Shown here: positions 1,979 to 27,660 of the stretch, piece by piece
Layout: each line of letters opens with the position of its first letter
Numbering within the stretch: the stretch's first letter is position 1
DNA from: a virus
Taxonomy: Duplodnaviria > Heunggongvirae > Uroviricota > Caudoviricetes
IMG/VR virus record: IMGVR_UViG_3300036956_000151
Length of the DNA: 28,061 bases
Direction: 5' to 3' (one strand)
The notes under the pieces: model-generated
Seen by the model: only the letters and a program-made list of their open reading frames with translations
What the model was told of the DNA's origin: nothing
The model's database searches: none
Program-made: the position numbers and the translations under genes

Positions 1979-2028
1979 TACGTATCAAGCACTTAGGCCA
2001 GCCTCACGAGGGCTGGCCTTTTGCTTTC
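1933..2028 (+). repeat. att direct repeat copy 1 (tRNA 3' half from anticodon loop plus terminator); part of the intact tRNA
   Basis: Near-identical to 12407-12502 and 27555-27660. Confidence 0.85.
1996..2027 (+). terminator. Rho-independent terminator of the tRNA (GGCCAGCC-N7-GGCTGGCC followed by TTTTGCTTT); repeated with the att copies at 12470-12501 and 27620-27651
   Basis: 8-bp GC stem plus T-run seen directly. Confidence 0.65.
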
Positions 2029-2036
2029 TGGGCCAA

Positions 2037-2055
2037 TGTAAGCACCTTGTAAGCG
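2037..2055 (+). promoter_or_regulatory. Two TGTAAGC heptamers (2037-2043, 2049-2055) at left end of element A; candidate integrase arm-type sites
   Basis: Same heptamer occurs three times at 12257-12287 at the opposite end, just upstream of the element A integrase start. Confidence 0.4.
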
Positions 2056-2530
2056 CCAGCAGAGGATGCGGGCCTGATGTCTGATGCGTACGTAACTTGT
2101 GTGCGTACCAGACTGCGTACTCGTGCATTGCACGGCCTCACATTGCGGTGCTGGCTATCGCCTTCCAAGCCCACGTTTAAAACGGAGCCTTCGACGGCGT
2201 GCTGAATACTCCGGTTTGAAATCGGAATATTCCCAGCTCCGGACAGCCCTGCGGCGACAGCCTCAAACCTTGACATCTTTGAACATCGGGCCTGACTCGC
2301 AGTAGAGGATGTCGCCGTTCCCGATACCCTGCAAAACCTACAAATCGTCGGCTTTGTGCAAGGGGCGCGAGGCATCCAACGCCATAAGGCACATATCGAA
2401 AGCTGCCTAGCAAGGGGGTGGCGTTTCGCCCACCCCTTTGATGCTCCCCGCAGGGTCGGGAAAACTACGCTATTTCCCGCAGTTTCAAGTTCGACCGTGG
2501 GCACCCTCGCCGGCCCCACCTCGCCCATCA

Positions 2531-2564
2531 ACCAAATTGGTAGATGGAGCAACCAATTTGGTTG
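2531..2564 (+). promoter_or_regulatory. Two adjacent palindromes ACCAAATTGGT and CAACCAATTTGGTTG; operator-like
   Basis: Perfect inverted repeats about 90-120 bp upstream of the Rha-like ORF. Confidence 0.35.
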
Positions 2565-2596
2565 CCACCAGCTTTACCGACCAGCACGGCGAAGGG

Positions 2597-2618
2597 GTGT
2601 CCTCAGTTTTGAGGATAC
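2597..2618 (+). promoter_or_regulatory. Palindrome GTGTCCTCA-GTTTT-GAGGATAC; operator-like, homologous to the site at 15443-15466 in element B
   Basis: Inverted repeat seen directly; 38 bp upstream of the ATG at 2657. Confidence 0.4.
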
Positions 2619-2656
2619 GTCGCCCCCGTCGCCAGCAGATACCCCATCAGCAAACC

Positions 2657-2803
2657 ATGAGCAGCCGCGAGATTGCGGAGCTAACGGGCAAGTGTCACGG
2701 CAACGTGAAGCGGACCATCGACACCTTGTCTGCCAAGGGAGTTATCCCTTTCCCTCATGCTGAGGAAAAGGCTACTGCGGGCCGTCCGCCGCTTGGCCTC
2801 TGA
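2657..2803 (+). CDS. Short ORF (48 aa) resembling only the N-terminal DNA-binding region of Rha/antirepressor-family phage proteins; possibly a truncated remnant
   Basis: MSSREIAELTGKCHGNVKRTIDTLSAKGVI matches the Rha-type N-terminal motif (SxEIAEL-GK-H-NV-R-I); no obvious SD. Confidence 0.4.
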   Translation: MSSREIAELTGKCHGNVKRTIDTLSAKGVIPFPHAEEKATAGRPPLGL

Positions 2804-2994
2804 GGGTGGCGTTTTTAAAACGCCCCCCCATGGAGAGCCAATATGGAGGCCATTTGCGGGAATGGCTCAGTTCTGAGCTATGAAGACCAGAGCCGGAATC
2901 CCTGTTCCACTCCCCATCCCGCCCAAGCCATGAATGCCGGCTGTCGCTGCAACCGTCGTGTGTAACTCTGCCCTGTAACCGCCAGCCAGAAGCG

Positions 2995-3016
2995 AAAAAC
3001 CCGGCGCTTGGCCGGG
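2995..3016 (-). terminator. Rho-independent terminator for the minus-strand gene 3054-3371 (CCCGGC-N5-GCCGGG followed by T5 on the minus strand)
   Basis: Hairpin plus A5 on the plus strand, about 40 bp past the stop codon. Confidence 0.5.
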
Positions 3017-3053
3017 TCTGTCCGTAGTGGGTACTAAACTTCAGGCGACATCT

Positions 3054-3371
3054 CTACCCCTCGGGGGAGCCAAAGTTGCGCAAAACCACACGGGCTAGGC
3101 TGCTGGTGCTGCAAAAACGGTCCTCGATGGCTGACATGACCGAGATGTTCAAGTCCTCGATTCTTGCCGACAGCCCGCGAAGCAATAGGGACTCGTCAAA
3201 GTTCTCCGATGTAAACGTTTCGCGCAGCATTCGGCACAGCCTGTCGATTTCCCAGGTTGCTTCCAGTGCTATGTCTCGGCGAGCCATGGACATAACTATA
3301 TCGTCGCCCTCTTCGCGGAGGTCTTGGTTGGTTCCGGTTTGGGGAAGGCTATCTAGTGTCGTTGCTTGCAT
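3054..3371 (-). CDS. Hypothetical acidic protein, 105 aa (MQATTLDSLPQTGTNQDLREEGDD...)
   Basis: ATG preceded by AAGGAG at 7 nt; terminator downstream; the plus-strand ORF over the same DNA is Ser-rich antisense-like. Confidence 0.5.
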   Translation of the reverse strand: MQATTLDSLPQTGTNQDLREEGDDIVMSMARRDIALEATWEIDRLCRMLRETFTSENFDESLLLRGLSARIEDLNISVMSAIEDRFCSTSSLARVVLRNFGSPEG

Positions 3372-3580
3372 GGTGGCTGCTCCTTGTGTGCGGTGATGTT
3401 CTCCGCAACCCCTTCCTACGGGGGCGGCGGAACCGTGCGGGGCTAGGAATACCGGACACAAGGAACCGGCCAGCCTCGCGGCTGCCCCACACGGCCCGCC
3501 ATTGAACAGGCGTCGCCATGCTTACCGACGTAAAAAAACCGCTTGCGCGGCCCTGTCGGCCTTGTGATTTCCGGGTTCCT
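3372..3580 (-). promoter_or_regulatory. Conserved ~200-bp structured non-coding leader (module 1), homologous to 15029-15235 in element B; possible promoter/5'-UTR or small RNA
   Basis: Alignable by eye with element B (shared GTTCTCCGC, GAACCGTGC, CCATGCTTACCGACGTAAAAAAACCGC-type blocks); conserved stems with compensatory changes; ends in SD plus ATG. Confidence 0.4.
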
Positions 3581-3760
3581 ACGCCCGCCCCTCTGTTTCG
3601 GGGGAAACTGAATCATGGGGCAGGCCGCTCGTTTCAGTCAATATAAAAATGATAATGAAATAGATTGGCTTGCCATAAATTTCGCTTGTACCATCGGCAT
3701 ACGACCACGGGCGTCTCGCAAGATGCAGACTGGCGCTCGCTCAAGACACAAGAGGCCCAC

Positions 3761-4735
3761 ATGAAGCGATTTGTTGTCATCCTCGGAGTATTGATGCTTG
3801 GCGGCTGCGCTACCGCCTATAAGCCTGAAGGTCACGGCGGAGGTTATACCGACGCTAGGTATGGCCCAAACCTCTTTGCAGTCACCGTGCGGGCCAACGG
3901 CTATACATCTTCTGACCGTGCAACAGAGCTGGCAATGCTACGAAGCGCGGAGCTTACATTGCAGAATGGATTCACCCATTTCGTCATCGCCGAGAGGGCT
4001 CAAGAGGCAAAGACCAGCACATTCAGCATGCCGACAACCACTTACACGACCGGAAATATCAACACGCAAGGAAATGCCGCTTACTTGAACGCCCAGACAA
4101 CAACTACAGGCGGGCAAACCTTCAATATTTCGAAGCCTCGCGTTTATTACAAAATAGAGTGTTACCGCAGTCAGCCCGACAGAGCCCTCGGGCTCGCTTA
4201 CGACGCCCGTGCAGTCTGCGAATCGCTTGGCAGCAAGTACGGCGTTGATTGCCAATCTCTCATCGCCACCAATCTCAAGCCTACCCATTCCAATGCCGGC
4301 GAAGTGCGTGCGGAGCTGTCCGCCGACCTGCCAGCCGGCTGGCAACGGCAAACTCTTTCTGACGAACTAGCGCAAAGAGGGGGAAGGCTGTTTGCCACTA
4401 ACAAGACCATAGACGCTGGGGCCTTGGTTTCGATGAGCAAACGGTCTGAAATTGTCGACACAGTCGTTTACGCCAAATCATTGAGAGCAAACCAAGCGAG
4501 CCTCATCGATAAAAGCGAGTGGTCTGAACTATCTGAAATCACCATAAACGGTCGTCGAGCATGGAAATTCTGGGTCACAGGCCTCTCAAAACGCGGCATG
4601 CAGGTTCAGTACCTAGGGACCGTTATTGAAGGCGAGTCACAGATGATTTACGTGAATACCTGGACTTCAAAGAAGAACTTTGACGATAACCGCACTGCTC
4701 TGGAGTCTCTCGCTGGCAGCTTTTCAGGCCTTTAG
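3761..4735 (+). CDS. Predicted lipoprotein, 324 aa, unknown function; low-GC cargo gene
   Basis: MKRFVVILGVLMLGGCATAYK (signal peptide with LGGC lipobox); AGAGG SD; GC visibly lower (~50%) than surroundings; Thr/Asn-rich linker segment. Confidence 0.8.
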   Translation: MKRFVVILGVLMLGGCATAYKPEGHGGGYTDARYGPNLFAVTVRANGYTSSDRATELAMLRSAELTLQNGFTHFVIAERAQEAKTSTFSMPTTTYTTGNINTQGNAAYLNAQTTTTGGQTFNISKPRVYYKIECYRSQPDRALGLAYDARAVCESLGSKYGVDCQSLIATNLKPTHSNAGEVRAELSADLPAGWQRQTLSDELAQRGGRLFATNKTIDAGALVSMSKRSEIVDTVVYAKSLRANQASLIDKSEWSELSEITINGRRAWKFWVTGLSKRGMQVQYLGTVIEGESQMIYVNTWTSKKNFDDNRTALESLAGSFSGL

Positions 4736-4768
4736 GCAGCGCAAGCGACGCCCGACCCCAAAGCGGCT

Positions 4769-4796
4769 ACGCGTGAAAGTGGCGTCTTTCACGCGT
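4769..4796. repeat. Palindromic hairpin repeat ACGCGTGAAAG-N6-CTTTCACGCGT; second copy at 5429-5456
   Basis: 11-bp perfect stems; two direct copies ~660 bp apart bracketing the repeat-rich block. Confidence 0.6.
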
Positions 4797-4907
4797 AACG
4801 ACGGGGCCAAGGGGAGGCCTCGTAGTCGGCTGGGTTGGCGATGAGCGGGGGAGAAGCAGGCTTGGTTTCCAGGGTCGGTTTCCAGCAGAACAGACCTTTT
4901 TCGCCTC

Positions 4908-4977
4908 CTGAAACCTGAACATCTTTCAGCATTCGCCGTCATGCCGTGCGCTTTTCTGTGCGCGTTGCCGGCTGCAT
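4908..4977. repeat. ~65-bp direct repeat (TGAACATCTTTCAGCAT...GTGCGCTTT...TTGCCGG), second copy 5148-5217; iteron-like
   Basis: Two copies ~240 bp apart read directly. Confidence 0.55.
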
Positions 4978-5260
4978 TACATCGAGGACCGGGCCAGCCA
5001 TGCGGTCGATGGCCACCTTGTGTTGTTCTTCAGGATTCAGGATTCAGCCGGGCCGGCACAGTGCTAGCACCGGGCTTGCCCGGTACTGGGGCTGCTTCGC
5101 ACTGCGGCCTGACGTGAAGACGCCCTCCCGCCCGGTCGTTTTGCTTCGTGAAAAGTGAACATCTTTCAGCATCGCATCGGGATGCTGTGCGCTTTCGCGT
5201 GCGGATTGCCGGAATCGGGGCAGGGCCAGTGCCGTCCATCTTCTGGACGCCATCGGTAGC

Positions 5261-5308
5261 GCCGATTTCAGCGCCGATTGACCGGCCGATTGACCGGCCG
5301 ATTGGCTG
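5261..5308. repeat. 12-bp tandem repeat GCCGATTGACCG, about four units, outer units degenerate
   Basis: GCCGATTTCAGC GCCGATTGACCG GCCGATTGACCG GCCGATTGGCTG. Confidence 0.6.
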
Positions 5309-5428
5309 CGCACCGAGCTGCGTACCACTGCCCTGCGTACCCGACTGCCGACGAAGGCCACGCCGCCAGCAGCGGCCACCAGTTCCAGAAAAGCGGCCTA
5401 CTCGCCAGCGTAGAGCTAGTAGCGGCCA

Positions 5429-5456
5429 CGCGTAAAAGTCGCGCCTTTCACGCGTG
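5429..5456. repeat. Second copy of the palindromic hairpin repeat (ACGCGTAAAAG-N6-CTTTCACGCGT)
   Basis: See 4769-4796. Confidence 0.6.
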
Positions 5457-5471
5457 ACGACGCGTGCGAGG

Positions 5472-5499
5472 GGAAGGAAGGAAGGAAGGAAGGAAGGAA
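5472..5499. repeat. (GGAA)7 tetranucleotide microsatellite
   Basis: Seven perfect GGAA units. Confidence 0.9.
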
Positions 5500-5771
5500 C
5501 TCTCTACGAGCGCGTTTGATGCGCCTGGCTACCTGCGCTTCCCTCAGACACGCAGTGCGTTCTTCGGTCTCCAGACGGGCGAGTGCACAGGCCATCCGGG
5601 CCAGGGTCAGAACTTACTGTTTCAGGCTGGCGGATTCTCGTTCCAGGGCGGCGAGTCGTTCAGCCTCCCCAAAACTCCCCAAAACCCCCCATTTATGGGT
5701 GCCGTCCTCCCCAAAACTCCCCACACCACCTTTAAGAGGTGGGGGGAAATGGGGACCATGTGGGGAATGGG

Positions 5772-7745
5772 TTACTTGAGCCACAGCCAGCCCTCCCGAA
5801 GGACGATGCAGCCACGGTTCACAAGTCCGGTAATGGCAAGCTGCGCCCTGTAACGTTTCTGGTCCGGGTCACATGCAAGGCGGGCGCGGGTCTTGTCGAT
5901 AGCCTCTTCCAGTTCAACGCAGGGCCGGCCAGGAGGTCCGCCAGCTTCCCCGAAGTGCCGCGACTCTTTCAGCAGGTCGCGCAGTGCGTCGAGGATGATT
6001 CGCTGATTCCCGCCGGTCGGCAGCTTCACCCGCCCCACGGCATCGGCGGCGCGCTCTTCGGGAACGACGCAGCAGCTTGTGATTTCGTCGCCGTCCTCGT
6101 CGGCCCCGATTTCCACCACTTCCAGCCGAAACGGTTTTCCCAGGTCGTCATTGCCATCCTTGCTCTTCGCGGCCGTCCATTCCCGGCGGTCGTCGGTGCG
6201 GCTCACCTCGATGGCGGCATCAAGCGCAGCGTGAAGGCTGGAATGCCCCCGCAGGCCCTTGGACGCATCCTTGCCGGTGTGATGCACCAGCAGCACCAGC
6301 CCGCCAAGCTCCGCCTGTAGCGCCTTCGTCGCGGCGATGATTTCGCCCATTGCGGCGGAGTCGTTCTCGTCGGCACCCGGCGCGGCGCGGTTCAGCGTGT
6401 CGAGGGCCAACACGCCACCCGAGTAACCGGCAGCGCGGGCGGCGCTCACAAGGTCGGCGCGGTCGGCAGCTTTGCGGATGTCGAGCGGTTGCAGCAGGAA
6501 GCGGAATGCGCCGGCAAGTGGGCCGTGTTTCTCTTGGTGCGCCTGGACGCGTTGCGAGATGCCGGCCTCACCCTCAAGGGCAACATACAGCACTGGGGCG
6601 GCCTTCACGCGGCACCCGAACCACGGCCGGCCAGCGGCGACAGCGGCGAGCATGTCGAGCGCCAGGAAGGATTTGCCGGACCCGCTTGGGCCATACAACG
6701 CGGCAATCCCTTCCTCCGGGAGCACACCACGCACCCGCCAGCGGACAGGGGGCAGCGCGGCCAGTTCAGACGGTGCCAGCAGCCGGAAGCGTTGCGAGTG
6801 CTTCTTCGGATTGGCCAGCAGTGCGGCCAGGGCGTCGAGGCCGTCCCGCTGGTGCATGTCGTTGGCGTCAAAGTTGGCGGGCGAGCCTTCCGGCATTTCC
6901 ACCCATGCGGCGGCGGTGTCCTTGGCGATGCGGGCGCAATGCGACTCCTTGCCGGCATCGGCCACCAACACCCGGCGGGCCAGCGGGTAGCGGTCGGCCA
7001 GCGCCTTGGATGCGGCTTCCATCCGGCCGGCACCGAAGCAGACCGCGGCCGGCGCGTTCGCGGCCTGGTGGCAGCTCCACGCCTGCCCGACGCCCTCGCA
7101 CAGGTAGAGCGTGACGCCTGCGCCCTGGTGCGGGATGCGCCCCACCACGAACAGGCCGTCCATCGGCAGGCCGGGGGCGTTCAGTTTCTTGCCATCGGCC
7201 GGCGGGATGAATTGCGCGCTCTTCAGGGTGCCGTCAATCGCGTAGCACGGCACCACGAGATAGCCGGCCACCGCCTCGCGGGCGATGGTCAGCGGGCCGC
7301 CATAGACGCGCAGGCCGGCGGGTAGGCCATGCTTGCGGGCAATGTAGCCGTGTTCCGCCGTCGCTGGTGCGCAGGATGCCCACAGGGCGGCCACGTCGAG
7401 CGGCGGAGCCTTGGACGGGGCTTCGTGCATCCGGCGCTCGGTCGTGCGTTGTGGGCGGTTCTGGTAAGTCTGGCGCGGTGCGTCGTCGCTCCATCCAGCG
7501 GCGCGGGCCAGTGCGAAGAGCGTACCGGCCTGGATGCCGCCATCCTCGCGGATGCTCCGCCAGACGGCGCGTGCGTCGGCCTCGTTGCGATAGTTGCCGG
7601 CTCCGGCGCTCCAGTCATGGAAGTCCTCGAAGTCGAGGCCGGCAGCCTTTGCAGCCATGCCAGCCCGGACCCATTCGGCGCGTTCGGCACCGGGGTCGAG
7701 GGCGTGCAAGGCAAAGCGGGCGCGGTCAAACTCGCGGGCATCCAT
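5772..7745 (-). CDS. Primase-helicase-type replication protein, 657 aa (PriCT-like N-terminus, Toprim-like centre, RecA-type ATPase C-terminus); ORF-track N-terminal 71 aa rejected
   Basis: MDAREFDRARFALHALDP...GLDFEDFHDWSAG; CEGVGQAW and VLVADAGKE; Walker A YGPSGSGKSFLALD and VLLVHHTGKD; ATG overlaps upstream stop (ATGA). Confidence 0.85.
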   Translation of the reverse strand: MDAREFDRARFALHALDPGAERAEWVRAGMAAKAAGLDFEDFHDWSAGAGNYRNEADARAVWRSIREDGGIQAGTLFALARAAGWSDDAPRQTYQNRPQRTTERRMHEAPSKAPPLDVAALWASCAPATAEHGYIARKHGLPAGLRVYGGPLTIAREAVAGYLVVPCYAIDGTLKSAQFIPPADGKKLNAPGLPMDGLFVVGRIPHQGAGVTLYLCEGVGQAWSCHQAANAPAAVCFGAGRMEAASKALADRYPLARRVLVADAGKESHCARIAKDTAAAWVEMPEGSPANFDANDMHQRDGLDALAALLANPKKHSQRFRLLAPSELAALPPVRWRVRGVLPEEGIAALYGPSGSGKSFLALDMLAAVAAGRPWFGCRVKAAPVLYVALEGEAGISQRVQAHQEKHGPLAGAFRFLLQPLDIRKAADRADLVSAARAAGYSGGVLALDTLNRAAPGADENDSAAMGEIIAATKALQAELGGLVLLVHHTGKDASKGLRGHSSLHAALDAAIEVSRTDDRREWTAAKSKDGNDDLGKPFRLEVVEIGADEDGDEITSCCVVPEERAADAVGRVKLPTGGNQRIILDALRDLLKESRHFGEAGGPPGRPCVELEEAIDKTRARLACDPDQKRYRAQLAITGLVNRGCIVLREGWLWLK

Positions 7746-8194
7746 CACATCACCCCCAGCACGCGCACGAAGGCCGCGACAACGGCGGCGGTCACGGATG
7801 CAGCGGCGAAGACAACGAGCGCGTCGAGGCTGATGGAACCGCGTTGCTGTCGTGCGTTCAGGGCGGCAGCGGTTGCCGGGTGCTGGCGGTCGAGCGCGTA
7901 CTCGGTGATTGTGCTGCGGCAATGGGGGCGGCGGATGTCGCGCTTGCAAAACGCCCACCCGCCATACTCCAGCGACTTAACTGACGCGGCCAGCCGCCAC
8001 CCGTCGCGGTAGTCGGCCTGGTTCTGCGGGCCGGTCAGCAGCGCCTGAAGGGCTTCGTAAGCCCGGGTGTTGTCGTTCGGCCAGCTTGCAGCTTCAACAG
8101 GCGGCAGCGTCTCGGGAAAGAGGTCTTGGGCGTTATAATGGCGAGGCTTGTCCAGGGCGCTCGACTTCTTTTTGGGGGTCGGGCGCTTTTTCAT
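7745..8194 (-). CDS. Hypothetical protein, 149 aa, basic N-terminus and hydrophobic C-terminal helix; coupled to primase gene
   Basis: ATGA overlaps at both ends. Confidence 0.6.
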   Translation of the reverse strand: MKKRPTPKKKSSALDKPRHYNAQDLFPETLPPVEAASWPNDNTRAYEALQALLTGPQNQADYRDGWRLAASVKSLEYGGWAFCKRDIRRPHCRSTITEYALDRQHPATAAALNARQQRGSISLDALVVFAAASVTAAVVAAFVRVLGVM

Positions 8195-8520
8195 GCCGCA
8201 CCAGCCTTTCGGGCCTTCGCTTCGACGAGCGCCATTTCATTGGCAGCGAACTCCTGACCTGCGCTGCCGGCGGCCTCAATGACTTCGACCGGCAGGCGGT
8301 ACTGCGCGAAGGCGCACGACTCGCCGAAGCGGTTGGGACGTTGGATAGTCTCCTTCGCGACGCCCCAGCCCCATTTGGTCAGGAGGAAAACGACGGCGGC
8401 AGTCCGGTAGATGCCCAGCGTCCTCCAGCTTGCAATGGGGCCAATGGCATTGCCAGCCAGAAACGCAGCGAGCAGGCGGGCGCTCTGGGTGCCGTGCTTG
8501 GGGTAGGTGCCGGCCATCAT
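8191..8520 (-). CDS. Hypothetical protein, 109 aa
   Basis: Start overlaps upstream stop (TAATG); stop overlaps downstream start (ATGA). Confidence 0.6.
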   Translation of the reverse strand: MMAGTYPKHGTQSARLLAAFLAGNAIGPIASWRTLGIYRTAAVVFLLTKWGWGVAKETIQRPNRFGESCAFAQYRLPVEVIEAAGSAGQEFAANEMALVEAKARKAGAA

Positions 8521-8750
8521 TACGCCACCTCGCCAGAGGTAAGGGCCTCAACGGCCGCGGCGTCCCACAGCAAGAAGCGGTTGCGGCACTTGACCGGGCG
8601 CAGGCCGAAGTAATGCCCGTCACGGCACAGGGCGGCGCGCAAGGTCTGCGGGCGCACCTTCAGGACGGCGGCGGCCTCAATGGTGGAGTAGTTGCGCAGG
8701 ATGGACGCGATGTCCGTGCGCTTGGTGGTGGGTGTGTTTTGGTGTTGCAT
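8520..8750 (-). CDS. Small HTH DNA-binding protein, 76 aa, AlpA/excisionase-like; first gene of the replication operon
   Basis: STIEAAAVLKVRPQTLRAALCRDGHYFGLRPVKCRNRFLLWDAAAVEAL; AGGAGA SD; same motif pattern as the element B gene at 23916-24098. Confidence 0.7.
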   Translation of the reverse strand: MQHQNTPTTKRTDIASILRNYSTIEAAAVLKVRPQTLRAALCRDGHYFGLRPVKCRNRFLLWDAAAVEALTSGEVA

Positions 8751-8843
8751 TCGCTGGTTCTCCTGCTCGGAAAACCACCGTTGAGAGTCGCCGGATGCAA
8801 CTCAATCAACGCTGGCGAACGCAATGTGTTGCGCCGAAGTCTA

Positions 8844-8859
8844 TTAACAGCCGGCTGTT
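8844..8859. promoter_or_regulatory. Perfect 16-bp palindrome TAACAGCCGGCTGTTA in the promoter region of the element A replication operon
   Basis: Lies between the stop at 8863 and the HTH gene start at 8750. Confidence 0.35.
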
Positions 8860-8862
8860 ATG

Positions 8863-9456
8863 TTACCCGCCATTTCCAAGATGCTGATTTTTAAGGGTCT
8901 TTAGGCTGTTTAGAAATTTGCGCTCTTCGCTACCCCCCTCGGTTCTAAGTCCGTGCTCGTCAGTGAATACAACATACCCCGCGTCGCGCTGCACGACTCC
9001 ACGGCTCTCCAGTTTGTCCAGCATATCCGATGCAGTCAGGAGTCTGTTCTTGTCCCATATGGCCTTTGCCTCTAGTCGCCAGCGGATAGTAGCGGGCCGT
9101 CCTCCTTTGCGTACGACACGCTTCTGCGACGCGGACCTAGCCTGCTGTGCTCTTGCTGCTGCGGCGTAATGCTGCATCATCGGAGACAAGGGACCGACAG
9201 CAAGAATGGCAGACCTTGCAGCCGCAACGGACGCGGCGTGCGCAGCATCAACCATTGGCTGCATCCACTGACGCGTTTTTTCAGGCCACGTCTCCCTTAG
9301 AAGTCCAAGAGGCGGCTCCTGCAAAGGTAGGGTCAGCGAGCTTCTCAGCACCGACTCGAACACGGCGAGCTGGATTTCCTCGGCCCCGCGCCTGAAGTCA
9401 GCCGCGAATGATGCGGACTGACCTCCCATCCCCTGTTTTTTCAAATGCTTTGTCAT
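8863..9456 (-). CDS. Hypothetical protein, 197 aa; contains a GGRPA motif shared with the syntenic 252-aa protein of element B
   Basis: AAGGAG SD 6 nt upstream; directly preceded by conserved hairpin module 2. Confidence 0.6.
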   Translation of the reverse strand: MTKHLKKQGMGGQSASFAADFRRGAEEIQLAVFESVLRSSLTLPLQEPPLGLLRETWPEKTRQWMQPMVDAAHAASVAAARSAILAVGPLSPMMQHYAAAARAQQARSASQKRVVRKGGRPATIRWRLEAKAIWDKNRLLTASDMLDKLESRGVVQRDAGYVVFTDEHGLRTEGGSEERKFLNSLKTLKNQHLGNGG

Positions 9457-9477
9457 CGCGCTCCTTCAAGCGCCTTC

Positions 9478-9552
9478 AAAAGAGGCACCGCGCCAGGCGG
9501 GTGAAGGTTCCCGCTTTTCGGTTGGCCGACCTAGGCGCGGTGGTGGTACTCG
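9478..9552. terminator. Conserved nested-hairpin element (module 2): outer stem CACCGCGCC/GGCGCGGTG enclosing inner hairpin GCGGG-N8-CCCGC plus T4; terminator-like in both orientations; homologous copy at 25028-25104
   Basis: Near-identical flanks in both elements; inner stem differs by compensatory changes (GCGGG/CCCGC versus CGGGG/CCCCG). Confidence 0.45.
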
Positions 9553-9553
9553 G

Positions 9554-9934
9554 TCAGGCGGCAATCGCCTCATTCAAGGGACACGGCTGAATCAGCACGT
9601 CAGCCGGGAGGCCGAGGCCAGAAGACAGGCGGCGAATCATCGTCACCGACAGCGGGCGCGTCCGGTTCATGATGTCGGCCACCCTCCCCCGCGGGCCGAT
9701 GTAAGGCTCCAAGTCCTTGCGCGTCAATCCGCGGGACTCCATGACGTACTCAAGGAAGGCCACCGGGTCCGGGGCTTTAATCAGGAAGTGCGCCTTTTCG
9801 TAGGCTTCCACCAGCATGGCGAGCACCTCCAGGCGGTCGGCCTCGGGGCTTCCATCAGGGGCATCCCACAGGCGTTCGATATCGGCCAGGGCTTCGTTGT
9901 GCTCGGCTTCGGTTCGGATGGGCTTCAGTTCCAT
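9554..9934 (-). CDS. higA: HigA-family antitoxin (HTH), 126 aa
   Basis: Immediately downstream of the HigB-type toxin gene; AGGAG SD; C-terminal HTH-like segment LTRKDLEPYIGPRGRVADIMNRTRPLSVTMIRRL. Confidence 0.8.
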   Translation of the reverse strand: MELKPIRTEAEHNEALADIERLWDAPDGSPEADRLEVLAMLVEAYEKAHFLIKAPDPVAFLEYVMESRGLTRKDLEPYIGPRGRVADIMNRTRPLSVTMIRRLSSGLGLPADVLIQPCPLNEAIAA

Positions 9935-9942
9935 GGCGGCTC

Positions 9943-10236
9943 CTAGATGGTTTCAGCGTCTATCCGGTCGTACTCGGCATGAGTGCCCACGAAACGGATG
10001 AACATCATGGTGGAGGTGTAACGCACAGCCGCCACCAACCGGTAGTCATTGCCCTTGATGTTGAACACCACGCGGTTGTTCGCCAGAAAGCTGGCGTTCC
10101 GGTGCGCGGCCTTGATGTCGGCCGGGGTTTGCCAGGTGGCCCGGCTTGCCTCGGCGTACCAACCACGCAAAGGGGTTTCGGCTTGCGGATGCTTCTCCCA
10201 AAACTCGCGCAGTGCTCGCAGTGCAATGATGTGCAT
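9943..10236 (-). CDS. higB: HigB-family type II toxin (mRNA interferase), 97 aa
   Basis: MHIIALRALREFWEKHP...NNRVVFNIKGNDYRLVAAVRY...IRFVGTHAEYDRIDAETI; toxin-first order. Confidence 0.85.
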   Translation of the reverse strand: MHIIALRALREFWEKHPQAETPLRGWYAEASRATWQTPADIKAAHRNASFLANNRVVFNIKGNDYRLVAAVRYTSTMMFIRFVGTHAEYDRIDAETI

Positions 10237-10319
10237 GACTCAATCTAGCATGTTACCGTTTTGGTAGCAAACACTCAGGCTTTCACCACCCGCAGCCCGG
10301 CCGCCTGCTCTTCGCCCGG

Positions 10320-10604
10320 TCAGGCGGCGATGCGTGCCACGGGTGCCCGGTCCTTGGCGCGCTCGCCGGCTGTCCAGAGGTCGCGCTGCGTTTGCAGGCG
10401 CAGCCAGTAGCCGGGCGAGGTGCCTAGCGCCTCGTGCAGGCGCAGGTCCATATCGGCGGTGACGGCGGCATGCCCGTGCAGGATGCGGGACAACATCACC
10501 CGGCTGATGCCCACATGGGCGGCAAAGGCGGTCACGCTCATATCGAGGTCTTCCAGCCAGCCGGCCAGGATTTCGCCAGGGGTTGAAGGGTCGTGCATGT
10601 CCAT
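10320..10604 (-). CDS. HigA-like antitoxin (XRE-type HTH), 94 aa
   Basis: PGEILAGWLEDLDMSVTAFAAHVGISRVMLSRILHG...ITADMDLRLHEALGTSPGYWLRLQTQRDL; follows the killer-protein toxin gene. Confidence 0.8.
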   Translation of the reverse strand: MDMHDPSTPGEILAGWLEDLDMSVTAFAAHVGISRVMLSRILHGHAAVTADMDLRLHEALGTSPGYWLRLQTQRDLWTAGERAKDRAPVARIAA

Positions 10605-10615
10605 GATGTCGGGCC

Positions 10616-10894
10616 TCAGTGGTAATCCAGATAGTCCAGCAGTTCCACGTTTCCGCCATCGAAGCGGAACACAAGCCGCCAGTTGGCTTGCACCGTCATG
10701 GCGAGGAAGCCGGCGCGGTCGCCGGACAGGCCATGCAGGCGCCAGGACGGGCGGGCGAGGTCTTCCGGGCCGGCGGCGGCGTTCAGGGCGGTCAGCATTT
10801 CCCGTAGGCGCTTGGCGTGAATCGGCTGAATGCCGGCCTGCTTGCCGGTCAGGAAGAAGGCTTCAAGCCCCTTGTGTCGGAACGATAGAATCAT
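10616..10894 (-). CDS. RelE/ParE-superfamily toxin of the HigB killer-protein type, 92 aa
   Basis: MILSFRHKGLEAFFLTGKQAGIQPIHAKRLREMLTALNAA...LLDYLDYH. Confidence 0.85.
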   Translation of the reverse strand: MILSFRHKGLEAFFLTGKQAGIQPIHAKRLREMLTALNAAAGPEDLARPSWRLHGLSGDRAGFLAMTVQANWRLVFRFDGGNVELLDYLDYH

Positions 10895-10898
10895 AGTC

Positions 10899-10917
10899 TG
10901 TAAATCATAGCTTTACA
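10899..10917. promoter_or_regulatory. Inverted repeat TGTAAA-N7-TTTACA upstream of the toxin gene; likely TA operator/promoter
   Basis: Between toxin start (10894) and integrase stop (10926). Confidence 0.4.
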
Positions 10918-10925
10918 ATGTCCGC

Positions 10926-12242
10926 TCAGGTCACAACCCGCAACCCAGGCGCCTGCCCCTCGTCCGGCTGCTCGATGCCGGCCTGCTCCAGAATCCAGCC
11001 CTCTATCTTGATGTGCCACAGGGTCAGCAGGTCGAGCGGCCGGCGGCGATAGTGCTTCTCGGCCAAGGCGCTGGGCTTGTGCCCCTGAATCTGCGCCACC
11101 ACGCCGACGGGCACCTCGCACCACTCCGCCAGGGTGCCGAAGGAGCGGCGCAGGTCATGCAGCGAGAATGGCGGCAGGCCGGCGGCTTCCATCGCTTTGC
11201 GCAGGGGTTTGAGGACTTCCACGATACGGCCATCCGCGGCCGCAGGGCTTGAGAACACCCACTCATTCCGGCGCGGCAGAGAGGCCAGCAGCGAGGCGAC
11301 GAAGGGCGTCAGCGGGATGATGCGGCCCTCTTCCTCCACCTTGTCGGCGATGTGCAGGGACTTCCATTGAAAATCCACGTCAGCCCATTTCAGGCCGGCC
11401 AGTTCCTCGCGCCTCGCGCCGGTCAGGAGCAAGGTTTGCAGGTAGGCGGCGTGCACCGGGTTCCCCAGCTTGCGGACATGCTCGAACCACAGCGGCAATT
11501 GTTCGCGGCGCAGGCTGTCGCCTTTGGTCTTCACCGCCTGCACTTGGTCCCGCACTTCGCTGGTGCGGCAGGCATCCGCACGAACGAGGCCGGCATACTC
11601 CGGGCGCTCGGCACACCAGCCAAGGAAGGCGCGCACGAGGCGGAATATCTTTGCGGCCTGCGTCGCCCCGCGGGCGTTGTTGTCCTGCATCCATGCCGTG
11701 ATGCGTGCCGGGGTCAGGTCCAATAGGCGCACATGCAGCAGCGGATGTACCATGCCGGGCAAAGTGTATTCCCCCTGCCCAGCCTTGCGCCCTCGCGTGA
11801 TGCGCTCGCCGCCGGGCTTTATGGCCTGTGCATGGTCGCGCTGTGAGGACTCGCCCCACTTGTGCGAGCGGGCCAGAACATAGGCGGCCCATGCCTCGCC
11901 AACGGTCACTTCCTGCCGTGCGGACTCTTCCCGCTTGGCCTCGATGGCGGCGCGCTTGTCGGCCTTCTCTTGGCGCGGGTCGATGCCTTGGTCAATCAGG
12001 GTTTGCAGGCGGCGGGCTTCGGCGCGGGCTGCGTCAATGCCCCACGCGCGCACGTCGCCAATCGTGATGCGAAGAGCCTTGCCGTTCAGGCGGCTTTGGA
12101 AGATGAACCCGCGCGCCTCGCTGCCGGGTGTGGCACGCACTGCGAGGCCGGGCGCTTCCGTGTCCCACAGGAAGGCTTGAGCGGTGCCGGTCGGGCATTC
12201 AAATTCGCGGATGCGGCCGGCGGTCAGCTTGTTGCGTGCCAT
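10926..12242 (-). CDS. int: Tyrosine recombinase, P4-type integrase (element A); ATG at 12242 preferred over the ORF-track start at 12248
   Basis: ~438 aa; catalytic-domain blocks LTGARREELAGL, HDLRRSFGT, HKPSALAEKHYRRR; GGAGAA SD; adjacent to att copy 2. Confidence 0.9.
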   Translation of the reverse strand: MARNKLTAGRIREFECPTGTAQAFLWDTEAPGLAVRATPGSEARGFIFQSRLNGKALRITIGDVRAWGIDAARAEARRLQTLIDQGIDPRQEKADKRAAIEAKREESARQEVTVGEAWAAYVLARSHKWGESSQRDHAQAIKPGGERITRGRKAGQGEYTLPGMVHPLLHVRLLDLTPARITAWMQDNNARGATQAAKIFRLVRAFLGWCAERPEYAGLVRADACRTSEVRDQVQAVKTKGDSLRREQLPLWFEHVRKLGNPVHAAYLQTLLLTGARREELAGLKWADVDFQWKSLHIADKVEEEGRIIPLTPFVASLLASLPRRNEWVFSSPAAADGRIVEVLKPLRKAMEAAGLPPFSLHDLRRSFGTLAEWCEVPVGVVAQIQGHKPSALAEKHYRRRPLDLLTLWHIKIEGWILEQAGIEQPDEGQAPGLRVVT

Positions 12243-12256
12243 GTTCAAGTTCTCCG

Positions 12257-12287
12257 TGTAAGCGGCTCATGTAAGCAGCTTGTAAGC
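12257..12287. promoter_or_regulatory. Three TGTAAGC heptamers (12257, 12270, 12281) upstream of the element A integrase; candidate arm-type sites
   Basis: Direct repeats read from sequence; same heptamer at the left end (2037-2055). Confidence 0.4.
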
Positions 12288-12406
12288 GGATTCTAGAACA
12301 CGCTTCAATTTCCATCAACGTCAAAAACGGAATGAATGCTTTATTTTCAATGCCTTGCTGTTTTTATGAAACGCTATTCAATGTCAAAAAACCCCGTAAC
12401 CATTCA

Positions 12407-12502
12407 ACTCATAATCGCTTGGTCGCTGGTTCAAGTCCAGCACGGCCCACCATACGTATCAAGCACTTAGGCCAGCCTCACGAGGGCTGGCCTTTTGCTT
12501 TC
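12407..12502 (+). repeat. att direct repeat copy 2 (junction between element A and element B); tRNA 3' half only, no 5' half
   Basis: ACTCATAATCGCTTGGTCGCTGGTTCAAGTCCAGCACGGCCCACCA plus terminator; preceded by unrelated AT-rich sequence. Confidence 0.85.
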
Positions 12503-15028: not shown

Positions 15029-15235
15029 GGTGATGTTCCTTATTTGCGGTCTTGTTCTCCGCTACCCAGCCGCCAAGCTGGGTGAGCAGAACCGTGCAGG
15101 TTGGCGGACCGGAATAAGGACCGGCAGGGTTTCCCCTCCCGCACGGCCCCGCCCAATGAGGCGATACCATGCTACGGACGTAAAAAAACCGCGCAGTGCG
15201 GCGGTTGTCCGCCTTATTTACCCGGGCCGCCAAGC
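15029..15235 (-). promoter_or_regulatory. Conserved structured leader (module 1), element B copy
   Basis: Homologous to 3372-3580; includes hairpin CCGC-N5-GCGG followed by A7 (terminator-like on the minus strand). Confidence 0.4.
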
Positions 15236-25001: not shown

Positions 25002-25027
25002 TCTCGCGCTCCATCTGCGCACCCATC

Positions 25028-25104
25028 GAAAAAGGCACCGCGCCAGCGGGGCGATGGAATCCCCGTTTTCGGTTGGCCGACCTAGGCGCGGTGGTGGTGC
25101 TCGG
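25028..25104. terminator. Conserved nested-hairpin element (module 2), element B copy
   Basis: Outer stem CACCGCGCC/GGCGCGGTG, inner CGGGG-N9-CCCCG plus T4. Confidence 0.45.
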
Positions 25105-26040: not shown

Positions 26041-27369
26041 TTACTTGACGGCCCTGAGGACTGTCGCGGCCCCCTCTGTCGGCTGCTCGATGCCGGCCTG
26101 TTCCAGAATCCACGCCTCAATCTTGATGTGCCACATACGTAGCAGGTCGAGGGGCCGGCGGCGGTAGTGCTTTTCAGCCAGCGCAGACGGCTTGTGCCCT
26201 TGAATCTGCGCCACCACGCCCACCGGGCATTCCACCCATTCGGACAGGGTGCCGAAGGAGCGGCGCAAGTCATGCAGTGAGAACGGCGGCAGGCCGGCGG
26301 CTTCCATCGCGTTCTTGTGGGGCTTGAGCGGCTCCTGGAGGCGGCCAGATGCCGCGGAGGGGCTGGAGAACACCCACTCATTGCGGCGCGGCAGGGCTGC
26401 CAGCAAGGCCGCAACATAGGGCGTCAGCGGGATGATGCGCTGCCCTTCCACTTTGTCCCGGATGGTCAGGGACTTCCATTGAAAATCGATGCAATCCCAC
26501 GTCAGGCCGGCGAGCTCTTCGCGGCGGGCTCCGGTAAGCAGCAGGGTTTGCAGGTAGGCCACGTGCACCGGATTGCCCAGCTTCCTGACGTGCTCGAACC
26601 ACAGCGGCAACTGCTCCCGCTGCAGGCTGTCGCCCTTGGCTCTGGCCGCCTGCACCTGGTCCCGCACTTCGCTGGTACGGCAGGCGTCGGCCCGGACAAG
26701 GCCGGCATACTCGGGCCGCTCGGCACACCAGCCAAGGAAGGCCCGCACCAAGCGGAAGTTCTTCGCTGCTTCGGTGGCCCCCCGGACGTTGTTCGCCTGC
26801 ATCCAGGCCGTTATGCACGCCGGCGTCAGGTCGATCAGGCAGACCGCCAGCAGCGGATGAACCATGCCCTGCAATGAGAACTCGCCCTGCCCCTTCTTGC
26901 GGCCTCGCGTGATGCGCTCGCCACCGGGCTTGATGGCCTTCTCGTGGTCCCGCTTGGACGATTCGCCCCACTTGTGGGAGCGGGCGGCAACGTAGGCGGC
27001 CCACGCCTCGCCAACGGTCACGGACTGGCGGCGCTGCTCTTCCTGCCCTGCCACCACTGCGGCCTTCTTGGCCTCCACTGCGGCCAGCTTGTCGGCTTTC
27101 TCCTGCCGGGGATCGGTGCCCTGGTCGACAACGGTTTGCAACCGGCGAGCTTCGGCGCGGGCATCGTCCAGGTTCCACGCCCGCACGTCGCCGATGGTTA
27201 CGCGGATTGTTTGCCGGTTTAGCTTGGCCTCGAAGATGAACGACTTCGCGCCCGTGGTCGCACGCACAGCGAGGCGCGGCGCGTCGGTGTCCCAGAGGAA
27301 GGATTGCTTGGCGTCGGCGGGGCAGGAGAAGCGGCGGATTCGGTCGGGCGTGAGGCGTTCGCGTTGCAT
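26041..27369 (-). CDS. int: Tyrosine recombinase, P4-type integrase (element B), 442 aa
   Basis: Collinear with the element A integrase with long identical stretches (HDLRRSFGT, VGVVAQIQGHKPSALAEKHYRRRPLDLL); GGAG SD; adjacent to att copy 3. Confidence 0.9.
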   Translation of the reverse strand: MQRERLTPDRIRRFSCPADAKQSFLWDTDAPRLAVRATTGAKSFIFEAKLNRQTIRVTIGDVRAWNLDDARAEARRLQTVVDQGTDPRQEKADKLAAVEAKKAAVVAGQEEQRRQSVTVGEAWAAYVAARSHKWGESSKRDHEKAIKPGGERITRGRKKGQGEFSLQGMVHPLLAVCLIDLTPACITAWMQANNVRGATEAAKNFRLVRAFLGWCAERPEYAGLVRADACRTSEVRDQVQAARAKGDSLQREQLPLWFEHVRKLGNPVHVAYLQTLLLTGARREELAGLTWDCIDFQWKSLTIRDKVEGQRIIPLTPYVAALLAALPRRNEWVFSSPSAASGRLQEPLKPHKNAMEAAGLPPFSLHDLRRSFGTLSEWVECPVGVVAQIQGHKPSALAEKHYRRRPLDLLRMWHIKIEAWILEQAGIEQPTEGAATVLRAVK

Positions 27370-27554: not shown

Positions 27555-27660
27555 CGACTCATAATCGCTTGGTCGCTGGTTCAAGTCCAGCACGGCCCAC
27601 CAATAGCATCAAGCACTTAGGCCAGCCTCACGAGGGCTGGCCTTTTGCTTTCCGGCGCCG
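27555..27660 (+). repeat. att direct repeat copy 3 (right end of element B); tRNA 3' half plus terminator, a few substitutions after CCA
   Basis: Same 46-nt tRNA 3' segment and terminator; shares the tail CGGCGCCG with copy 2. Confidence 0.85.

Follow-up and report, generated by a model that had tools for sequence, protein, structure and literature searches.

We analysed a stretch of DNA of 28,061 bp (the window), a metagenome contig held as IMG/VR virus record IMGVR_UViG_3300036956_000151, and in it a gene for a putative lipoprotein that is carried by an integrated mobile element, referred to here as element A. The contig begins with rpoD (15-1892), followed by a tRNA-Met(CAT) gene (1902-1978). 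Exact copies of the 3' terminal 25 nt of the tRNA-Met gene are found at 1954, 12428 and 27578, where none would be expected by chance, and the DNA immediately downstream of the tRNA gene is likewise duplicated, with ~50 nt of the downstream hairpin region present at each boundary. The window therefore contains two integrative elements, A and B, in tandem. Element A is a P4-like or satellite-like integrative element. On its minus strand Pfam identified a P4-type integrase (Arm-DNA-bind_3 plus Phage_integrase), a primase/helicase (PriCT_2 plus AAA_25), an HTH_39 protein, an AlpA-like HTH_17 protein and two HigB-type toxin pairs; an int-alpA RNA lies on the same strand, and no virion or lysis genes were found in the element. 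The first-pass annotation, made from the letters alone, had described the lipoprotein gene as oppositely oriented cargo of foreign composition in an integrated satellite-like element, and the GC data, the att (attachment site) repeats and the minus-strand neighbours bear this out. It had also called the gene the only plus-strand cargo, which holds for intact genes of element A; a truncated Rha/antirepressor gene remnant (about 2660-2803, PHROG anti-repressor Ant, E 7e-8) is nevertheless on the plus strand as well. Two sister elements (L004 and L005) have an intact Phage_pRha gene of 107-137 aa at the position of this remnant.

The gene boundaries proposed at first pass are exact (Table 1). Mechanical extension of the open reading frame (ORF) would place the start at TTG 3665, which was rejected since it would bury the signal peptide and all homologues start at the signal peptide. 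The signal peptide comprises an MKR n-region, a 10-residue hydrophobic core (FVVILGVLML, mean Kyte-Doolittle value 3.28) and the lipobox L-G-G-C16, i.e. the LGGC motif already pointed out in the first reading. The test used the pattern [LVI][ASTVI][GAS]C with a conserved Cys, a positively charged n-region and a hydrophobic core; the lipobox satisfies the PROSITE-type rule, Gly at position -2 being less common yet permitted. Cys16 is invariant in 28 of 28 aligned homologues. The signal sequence is thus MKRFVVILGVLMLGG, followed directly by the Cys, and the product N-terminus is MKRFVVILGVLMLGGC. The residue at +2 after Cys16 is Ala, not Asp.

The base composition of the gene is foreign to element A. 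Its GC content is 52.7%, with 58% at third codon positions (GC3), against 63.0% GC for the remainder of the element and a GC3 of 76-87% for the core genes, so that the low GC noted at first pass is confirmed at both levels. In GC content it ranks lowest among 975-bp stretches of the contig: none of 25137 non-overlapping windows of this size was as low, the next lowest stood at 55.4%, and 975-bp windows of the contig average 62.2 ± 3.5%. Other low-GC pieces are the ORF at 8863-9456 (56.7%) and the left arm at 2030-3760 (57.7%). The exact protein is present on 31 public contigs and the representative of its 90%-identity cluster on 18; across the 15 sequence variants of that cluster the ORF is intact and 99% conserved. 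One cluster mate, WP_284446879.1, is named in RefSeq as 'CC0125/CC1285 family lipoprotein [Fluviibacter phosphoraccumulans]' (Betaproteobacteria, Rhodocyclales), from a species whose name implies that it accumulates phosphate.

The first-pass annotation could assign neither domain of the protein to a family; the present searches place both. NCBIfam NF047637, 'CC0125/CC1285 family lipoprotein', matches residues 3-157 with 82.2 bits (cutoff 40, E 6e-23) over profile positions 3-169 of 169. Typical members of this family are single-domain proteins of ~160-210 aa with the same lipobox (most matches are 178-214 aa long), whereas the protein studied here has 324 aa and an added C-terminal domain of 140 aa. 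By its N-terminal domain it is thus a member of NF047637, as judged from the profile match, and in its architecture a variant. The family is named after two Caulobacter ORFs and carries no functional assignment; the housekeeping family with a known unrelated role that the first-pass annotation had allowed for was therefore not what the search returned. An AlphaFold model of the N-terminal domain (28 homologues; predicted local distance difference test score (pLDDT) 82.6) predicts a sandwich of two helices and a beta-sheet with long Thr-rich hairpins. The model gave no close solved fold and no structural match of the PsbP/DcrB type, and a profile of the N-terminal domain gave no match to PDB sequences.

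Since the N-terminal domain modelled alone lacks PsbP/DcrB-type matches, the fold match of the protein belongs to its C-terminal domain. This domain was modelled with a pLDDT of 80-92, and Foldseek matched it to PDB entries of the PsbP/Mog1/DcrB/DUF1795 type, i.e. 3lyd (E 5e-7), cyanobacterial PsbP (3.5e-6), EagT6 (3.9e-6) and DcrB (1.7e-4). These matches, which include LpqN and Mtc28, span E 5e-7 to 2e-4 with a probability of 1.0 and a target TM (template modelling) score of about 0.6, and identity in the structural alignments is 8-18%. The same domain gave no Pfam match at E<=1, and a 29-sequence profile of it no match to PDB chains at E<=10. As modelled, the C-terminal domain is therefore related to the PsbP/DcrB (DUF1795) group at the level of fold only. 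The group comprises PsbP of photosystem II and the E. coli/Salmonella lipoprotein DcrB, and it also holds the type VI secretion system (T6SS) chaperones EagT6/SciW and mycobacterial LpqN, Mtc28 and Apa. The two domains are joined by a linker modelled at low confidence, and indels among two-domain homologues fall in this linker only.

A profile search with the C-terminal domain returned 566 cluster representatives at E<=1e-3, and most of the family members listed start with a signal-peptide-like or lipobox-bearing N-terminus, as judged by eye. The domain is combined with many partner modules, e.g. other small lipoprotein domains, SHOCT, a caspase domain and ankyrin repeats. We conclude that this widespread domain, which has no family name, is extracytoplasmic and has a fold of a protein-binding type. 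The commonest partner is a conserved N-terminal module that follows the signal peptide (P0033, P0036, P0045, P0048, P0052 and many others); it contains the aromatic run …NANA-WFFFFLPGSVTGKIxDAxTGxEGxNCV…SLSGTSxRC, the proteins that carry it often end in SHOCT, and no Pfam family covers it. The architecture of CC0125-type domain plus PsbP-like domain is rare, with four clusters in the first search and two more found via the C-domain profile. The C-domain profile found no match in IMG/VR, and a scan of one genome per species matched a single Methylobacter metagenome-assembled genome, so that the species of the host is absent from these representatives. For the whole protein, Pfam gave nothing at E<=1, and a PDB sequence match to a scaffoldin (E 0.087) was treated as noise. 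A search of the literature on CC0125/CC1285, DcrB and exclusion lipoproteins found no paper on this lipoprotein family.

The lipoprotein gene faces away from a C4/isrK-like RNA unit of the P1 immI type. The C4 antisense RNA was found at full length and above the gathering score of its family, and the isrK-like RNA at a score below that threshold; the isrK-like stretch is 85% conserved upstream of a homologue of 60% identity (P0002), which retains the arrangement and adjoins a Toprim primase. Downstream of the C4 RNA lies a 112-aa ORF without a Pfam or PHROG match. Between the RNA unit and the lipoprotein gene is an AT-rich stretch (3630-3700, 34% GC), in which both sigma-70-like matches of the promoter scan are on the minus strand. 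One of them immediately precedes the 5' end (3604) of the isrK-like RNA and is positioned to start an isrK-like/C4 transcript. As there are only these minus-strand matches and a weak plus-strand candidate, the AT-rich region can at most serve both strands as a divergent promoter region; the first-pass annotation was thus right that the upstream DNA is AT-rich, and its attribution to the lipoprotein gene itself cannot be sustained from the promoter matches. Element B also contains a C4 antisense RNA (15078-15160, minus strand, 48.1 bits); the ORFs 3' of the two C4 copies are mutually unrelated and neither has a family match.

The RNA unit, the divergent promoter region and the lipoprotein gene form a cassette that is 94.4-97.8% identical in sister elements, where blastn found 84.6-90.2% identity for the primase region. 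Because the cassette is more conserved than the backbone, it has moved recently between backbones, which agrees with its foreign composition. In many metagenomes of wastewater type, copies with 99% identity are found in elements of this kind. A homologue with the same two domains and 47% identity (P0003) starts 2 nt after the stop codon of a gene for a 222-aa HTH_3 plus Peptidase_S24 (CI/LexA-type) repressor, in a prophage that also carries RusA, DnaB and a methylase; an 88-aa ORF faces away from the repressor/lipoprotein pair and was read as Cro-like, with no family match. Among the single-domain relatives, some are oriented divergently to HTH_3 repressor genes in small integrative elements, and others adjoin a P4-type integrase and a restriction subunit or are near a D5_N primase. 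Two lie in podophage modules, one between an ejection protein and a tail fibre (L020) and one directly 3' of an internal virion protein (L029), and a further one is convergent with a large virion-like protein (L048). The 5009-bp Aeromonas caviae plasmid pKAM471_3 (L062), a MOBP mobilizable plasmid, encodes a 160-aa CC0125-family lipoprotein at 3599-4081; besides this gene, the plasmid annotation lists mobilization genes, a CcdAB pair, a DUF1640 protein and one small hypothetical, and a near-identical plasmid is NZ_AP024141.1. The best structural matches among viral proteins are phage lipoproteins without an assigned function, one of them named 'Host cell surface-exposed lipoprotein'.

Table 1. 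Positions of the lipoprotein gene, its parts and the features around it in the window.
Feature	Position	Strand	Basis
Element A	1979..12452	.	att core repeats; integrase, int-alpA RNA, AlpA-like helix-turn-helix (HTH) gene, primase/helicase, two HigBA pairs
Cassette (RNA unit, divergent promoter region, lipoprotein gene)	3368..5014	.	blastn against sister elements
Lipoprotein gene, 324 aa including signal peptide	3761..4735	+	ORF and sequence; ATG 3761, TAA 4733-4735
Shine-Dalgarno sequence AAGAGG	3750..3755	+	read from sequence; 5 nt 5' of ATG
Signal peptide and lipobox LGGC (residues 1-16, cleavage before the Cys; Cys16 the lipidated residue)	3761..3808	+	pattern test, conserved Cys
N-terminal domain (residues 3-157), CC0125/CC1285 lipoprotein family, predicted alpha/beta sandwich with long Thr-rich beta-hairpins	3767..4231	+	
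Linker, length-variable, low confidence (~residues 165-184)	4253..4312	+	pLDDT <50 at residues 169-185
C-terminal domain (residues 185-324), predicted PsbP/Mog1/DcrB/DUF1795-type fold	4313..4732	+	pLDDT 80-92; Foldseek against PDB
Sigma-70-like promoter match TTGACT-18-CATGAT (TTGACT 3641-3636, CATGAT 3617-3612)	3612..3641	-	promoter scan
Weak candidate promoter TTGGCT-18-TACCAT, 8/12	3665..3694	+	candidate read by eye
isrK-like RNA	3532..3604	-	RF01394, 43.8 bits, below gathering score of 50; E 2.3e-7
C4 antisense RNA (P1/P7 immI-type immunity RNA)	3420..3506	-	RF01695, 67.5 bits, gathering score 45; full length
112-aa ORF downstream of C4 RNA	3054..3392	-	ORF list; gene called at same position in sister elements
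12-bp GC-rich hairpin without U-tract, 33 nt 3' of stop	4768..4797	+	RNA fold; within 54-nt repeat; terminator scan negative

The hairpin 3' of the gene belongs to a 54-nt repeat that is present in two copies (4762-4815 and 5421-5474, 83% identical), each containing a 28-nt palindrome, ACGCGTGAAAG...CTTTCACGCGT. Between the copies are ~600 bp of non-coding DNA, which contain a second internal duplication (4899-4971 and 5139-5212) and are mostly missing from the sister element L001. A (GGAA)7 microsatellite (5472-5499) lies in the non-coding DNA between the lipoprotein and primase genes. The primase/helicase ORF (5772-7958, minus strand) is mechanically 728 aa long and its start is uncertain: its initial ~70 residues, rich in Arg and Pro, do not look like coding sequence, the PriCT_2 match begins at residue 83, and the sister-element protein has 513 aa and a different N-terminal region. 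A second compositionally foreign gene of element A is the 197-aa ORF at 8863-9456 on the minus strand (GC 56.7%, GC3 59%), which is kept in L001 and has no match in Pfam or PHROG. Two distinct pairs of HigB-type toxin and HTH antitoxin genes (HigB_toxin PF09907 and HigB-like PF05015) adjoin the integrase side by side (9554-10236 and 10320-10894, both minus strand), L001 having the first pair only.

Both tandem elements bear an integrase and lie at one tRNA-Met gene, with bounds at 1902-1978, 12428-12452 and 27578-27602. Their integrase genes (10926-12248 and 26041-27369, both minus strand) each share ~75% DNA identity with one and the same integrase gene of a sister element, and both elements have an int-alpA RNA (RF02996) on the minus strand, at 9473-9541 (71.9 bits) and 25023-25092 (63 bits). 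At the position of element B equivalent to that of the lipoprotein cargo are ORFs without a family match.

The lipoprotein resembles several known systems in part. With NF047637 it shares the N-terminal domain and the lipobox, and it differs in its extra 140-aa C-terminal domain and in being carried by a mobile element. DcrB and LpqN have the same type of fold, likewise as part of a lipoprotein, with no detectable sequence relation; DcrB was first identified as a host factor required for infection by phages C1 and C6. Llp of T5 and Cor of phi80, N15 and T1-like phages are small, single-domain outer-membrane lipoproteins that block the FhuA receptor. The likeness to them is that of a phage or mobile-element lipoprotein, some of whose single-domain relatives, like cor and llp, are next to genes for tail fibres or ejection proteins, and we propose it as a functional analogy. 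The protein itself has two domains, and neither Llp nor Cor is among the 50 PDB matches listed or the viral fold matches. It therefore belongs to neither the Cor nor the Llp family, although by analogy it may act like them.

Further parallels concern the position of the gene. P0003 follows a cI-type repressor gene directly, as an accessory gene riding on the repressor transcript, in the way that rexA and rexB follow cI in lambda; RexA and RexB are inner-membrane and cytoplasmic abortive-infection proteins, not lipoproteins. The lipoprotein gene abuts a C4 antisense RNA locus as found in the immI region of P1 (c4-icd-ant), and we know of no lipoprotein gene facing the c4 locus in P1. Ltp of Streptococcus phage TP-J34, TraT/Bor and MbeD of ColE1 are envelope lipoproteins of mobile elements that counter incoming DNA or attack from outside, and are alike in role and location only; the protein has no Pfam match to any of these families. 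As is expected of a 'moron' gene, the composition is unlike that of the element and there is modular exchange between related elements, the C-terminal domain occurring with unrelated N-terminal modules too. For the promoter and terminator of its own that a moron would have, the only candidates are the weak 8/12 match and the hairpin without a U-tract; P0003 uses the cI transcript instead.

We tentatively interpret the protein as an accessory, moron-type envelope lipoprotein of the resident mobile element, with superinfection exclusion, which the first-pass annotation had also put forward, as the best single guess for what it does. The gene and its relatives are linked to immunity loci of temperate elements, and the model places two folded domains on a flexible tether of ~20 residues. 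The interpretation is supported by the relatives, which sit where lysogeny-expressed accessory genes sit, i.e. in repressor, immunity-RNA and ejection/tail-fibre positions; exclusion as such is read from position only. In the proposed mechanism Cys16 would be lipidated and, as Ala and not Asp occupies position +2, the protein would then be sorted to the outer membrane. The CC0125-type domain would lie next to the membrane anchor, and the tethered PsbP/DcrB-like domain, whose fold is generally a protein-binding module, would contact a component of the envelope. If the gene is expressed while element A is quiescent, the envelope would be altered such that adsorption or DNA entry of incoming phages or rival elements fails, i.e. 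superinfection exclusion.

Several results weigh against this interpretation. The promoter and terminator scan found no plus-strand promoter scoring >=9/12 and no canonical terminator, so expression in the quiescent state is an assumption of the mechanism. Outer-membrane sorting follows by analogy from an E. coli rule, which may not hold in Rhodocyclales. Neither domain is connected to a known exclusion protein by experiment or by sequence: in 50,697 deposited phage genomes tblastn found no homologue, whether the query was the full protein or a single-domain relative carried by a phage, no PADLOC-DB defence profile matched at E<=1, and the sole PHROG match (PHROG 1119, Cor, E 0.018) was rejected, as it covers residues 1-23, the signal peptide only. 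The relation to Llp and Cor raised at first pass thus comes to nothing beyond the signal peptide. The clusters that share the two-domain architecture are few, and for one of them (P0004) the context is uninformative. Members of the N-domain family also occur in chromosomes, beside MlaD/MscS/Kdp genes, fatty-acid synthesis genes and RNase E; the C-domain family has a chromosomal-type member in a Ralstonia megaplasmid, and an RND (resistance-nodulation-division) pump region is among the chromosomal neighbourhoods. With chromosomal members in both domain families, the family is not intrinsically an anti-phage device. Mobile and chromosomal contexts stand at roughly ten to six, in a small and unsystematic sample.

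The strongest alternative, which we consider somewhat unlikely, is an envelope factor of lysogenic conversion other than exclusion, e.g. one acting in adhesion or surface remodelling, tolerance of envelope stress, Bor/TraT-like resistance to serum or predators, or immunity to a toxin that acts in the periplasm, which would benefit the host and hence the element. The same N-terminal domain is fused to Adhesin_E (Haemophilus surface adhesin protein E) in chromosomal homologues, further chromosomal members exist, and the C-terminal fold is found also in the T6SS immunity protein Tsi3, in the chaperones EagT6/SciW and in mycobacterial LpqN and Apa. P0029, whose C-terminal domain is closely related, is encoded next to a TNT toxin/Imm63 pair; its gene is, however, on the opposite strand to the pair, on a contig of 3.6 kb. 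The window contains no adhesin or toxin partner, and the positions in podophage ejection/tail-fibre modules and on a 5-kb plasmid are more easily explained by a role in entry or exclusion.

It is less probable still that the gene is a passenger, i.e. a chromosomal-type envelope lipoprotein gene that was captured with neighbouring DNA and has no element-specific function. Its foreign GC, which implies capture from elsewhere, would fit such an origin, as would the spread of the family in chromosomes and the absence of any function or literature on record. A passenger would not be expected to show an intact ORF with 99% conservation in 15 variants, in a cassette better conserved than its backbone. 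In addition, at least 8 different mobile-element contexts have recruited such genes independently, repeatedly at the same kind of position, which argues for selection. A role in the element's own transfer cycle, either late receptor masking that spares released particles from debris (described as a second role of T5 Llp) or help in envelope passage or lysis, is very improbable: single-domain relatives do lie within ejection/tail-fibre modules that are transcribed late, and L048 is convergent with a virion-like protein, yet the gene in the window and P0003 are tied to the immunity region rather than to late genes, the element has no virion or lysis genes, and the protein is not o-spanin-like. 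An o-spanin or other lysis lipoprotein had been considered separately and was rejected on the size of 324 aa, the two folded domains and the lack of lysis genes in the element.

Superinfection exclusion by an accessory envelope lipoprotein thus remains our preferred, tentative reading. A bolder form of it, which we regard as unlikely as it stands, is that the CC0125-type domain, alone or with a swappable PsbP-like domain, is the core of a widespread and unrecognised family of envelope exclusion proteins of satellites, prophages, podophages, integrative elements and small mobilizable plasmids. Such proteins would block DNA entry at the periplasm or outer membrane, e.g. by acting against the channel of podophage ejection proteins or a DcrB-like host entry factor, and would have no relation to Llp, Cor, Ltp and TraT. 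As RefSeq already names the protein, the gene as such is not novel; the recognition of the C-domain family, the recurrent placement at immunity loci and ejection modules and the pairing with a C4/isrK-type RNA locus appear to be undescribed.

No layer of phage resistance is less well catalogued than exclusion at the cell surface, because the proteins involved are small, diverse and invisible to defence-system finders. If the protein does not exclude phages, it would be an ordinary cargo gene. If it does, this would provide a function for an NCBI family that lacks one and would define an unnamed family of PsbP-like secreted domains (at least 566 clusters). It would also provide a marker, i.e. 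a lipoprotein gene beside an immunity locus or ejection module, by which similar genes could be found in environmental Betaproteobacteria.

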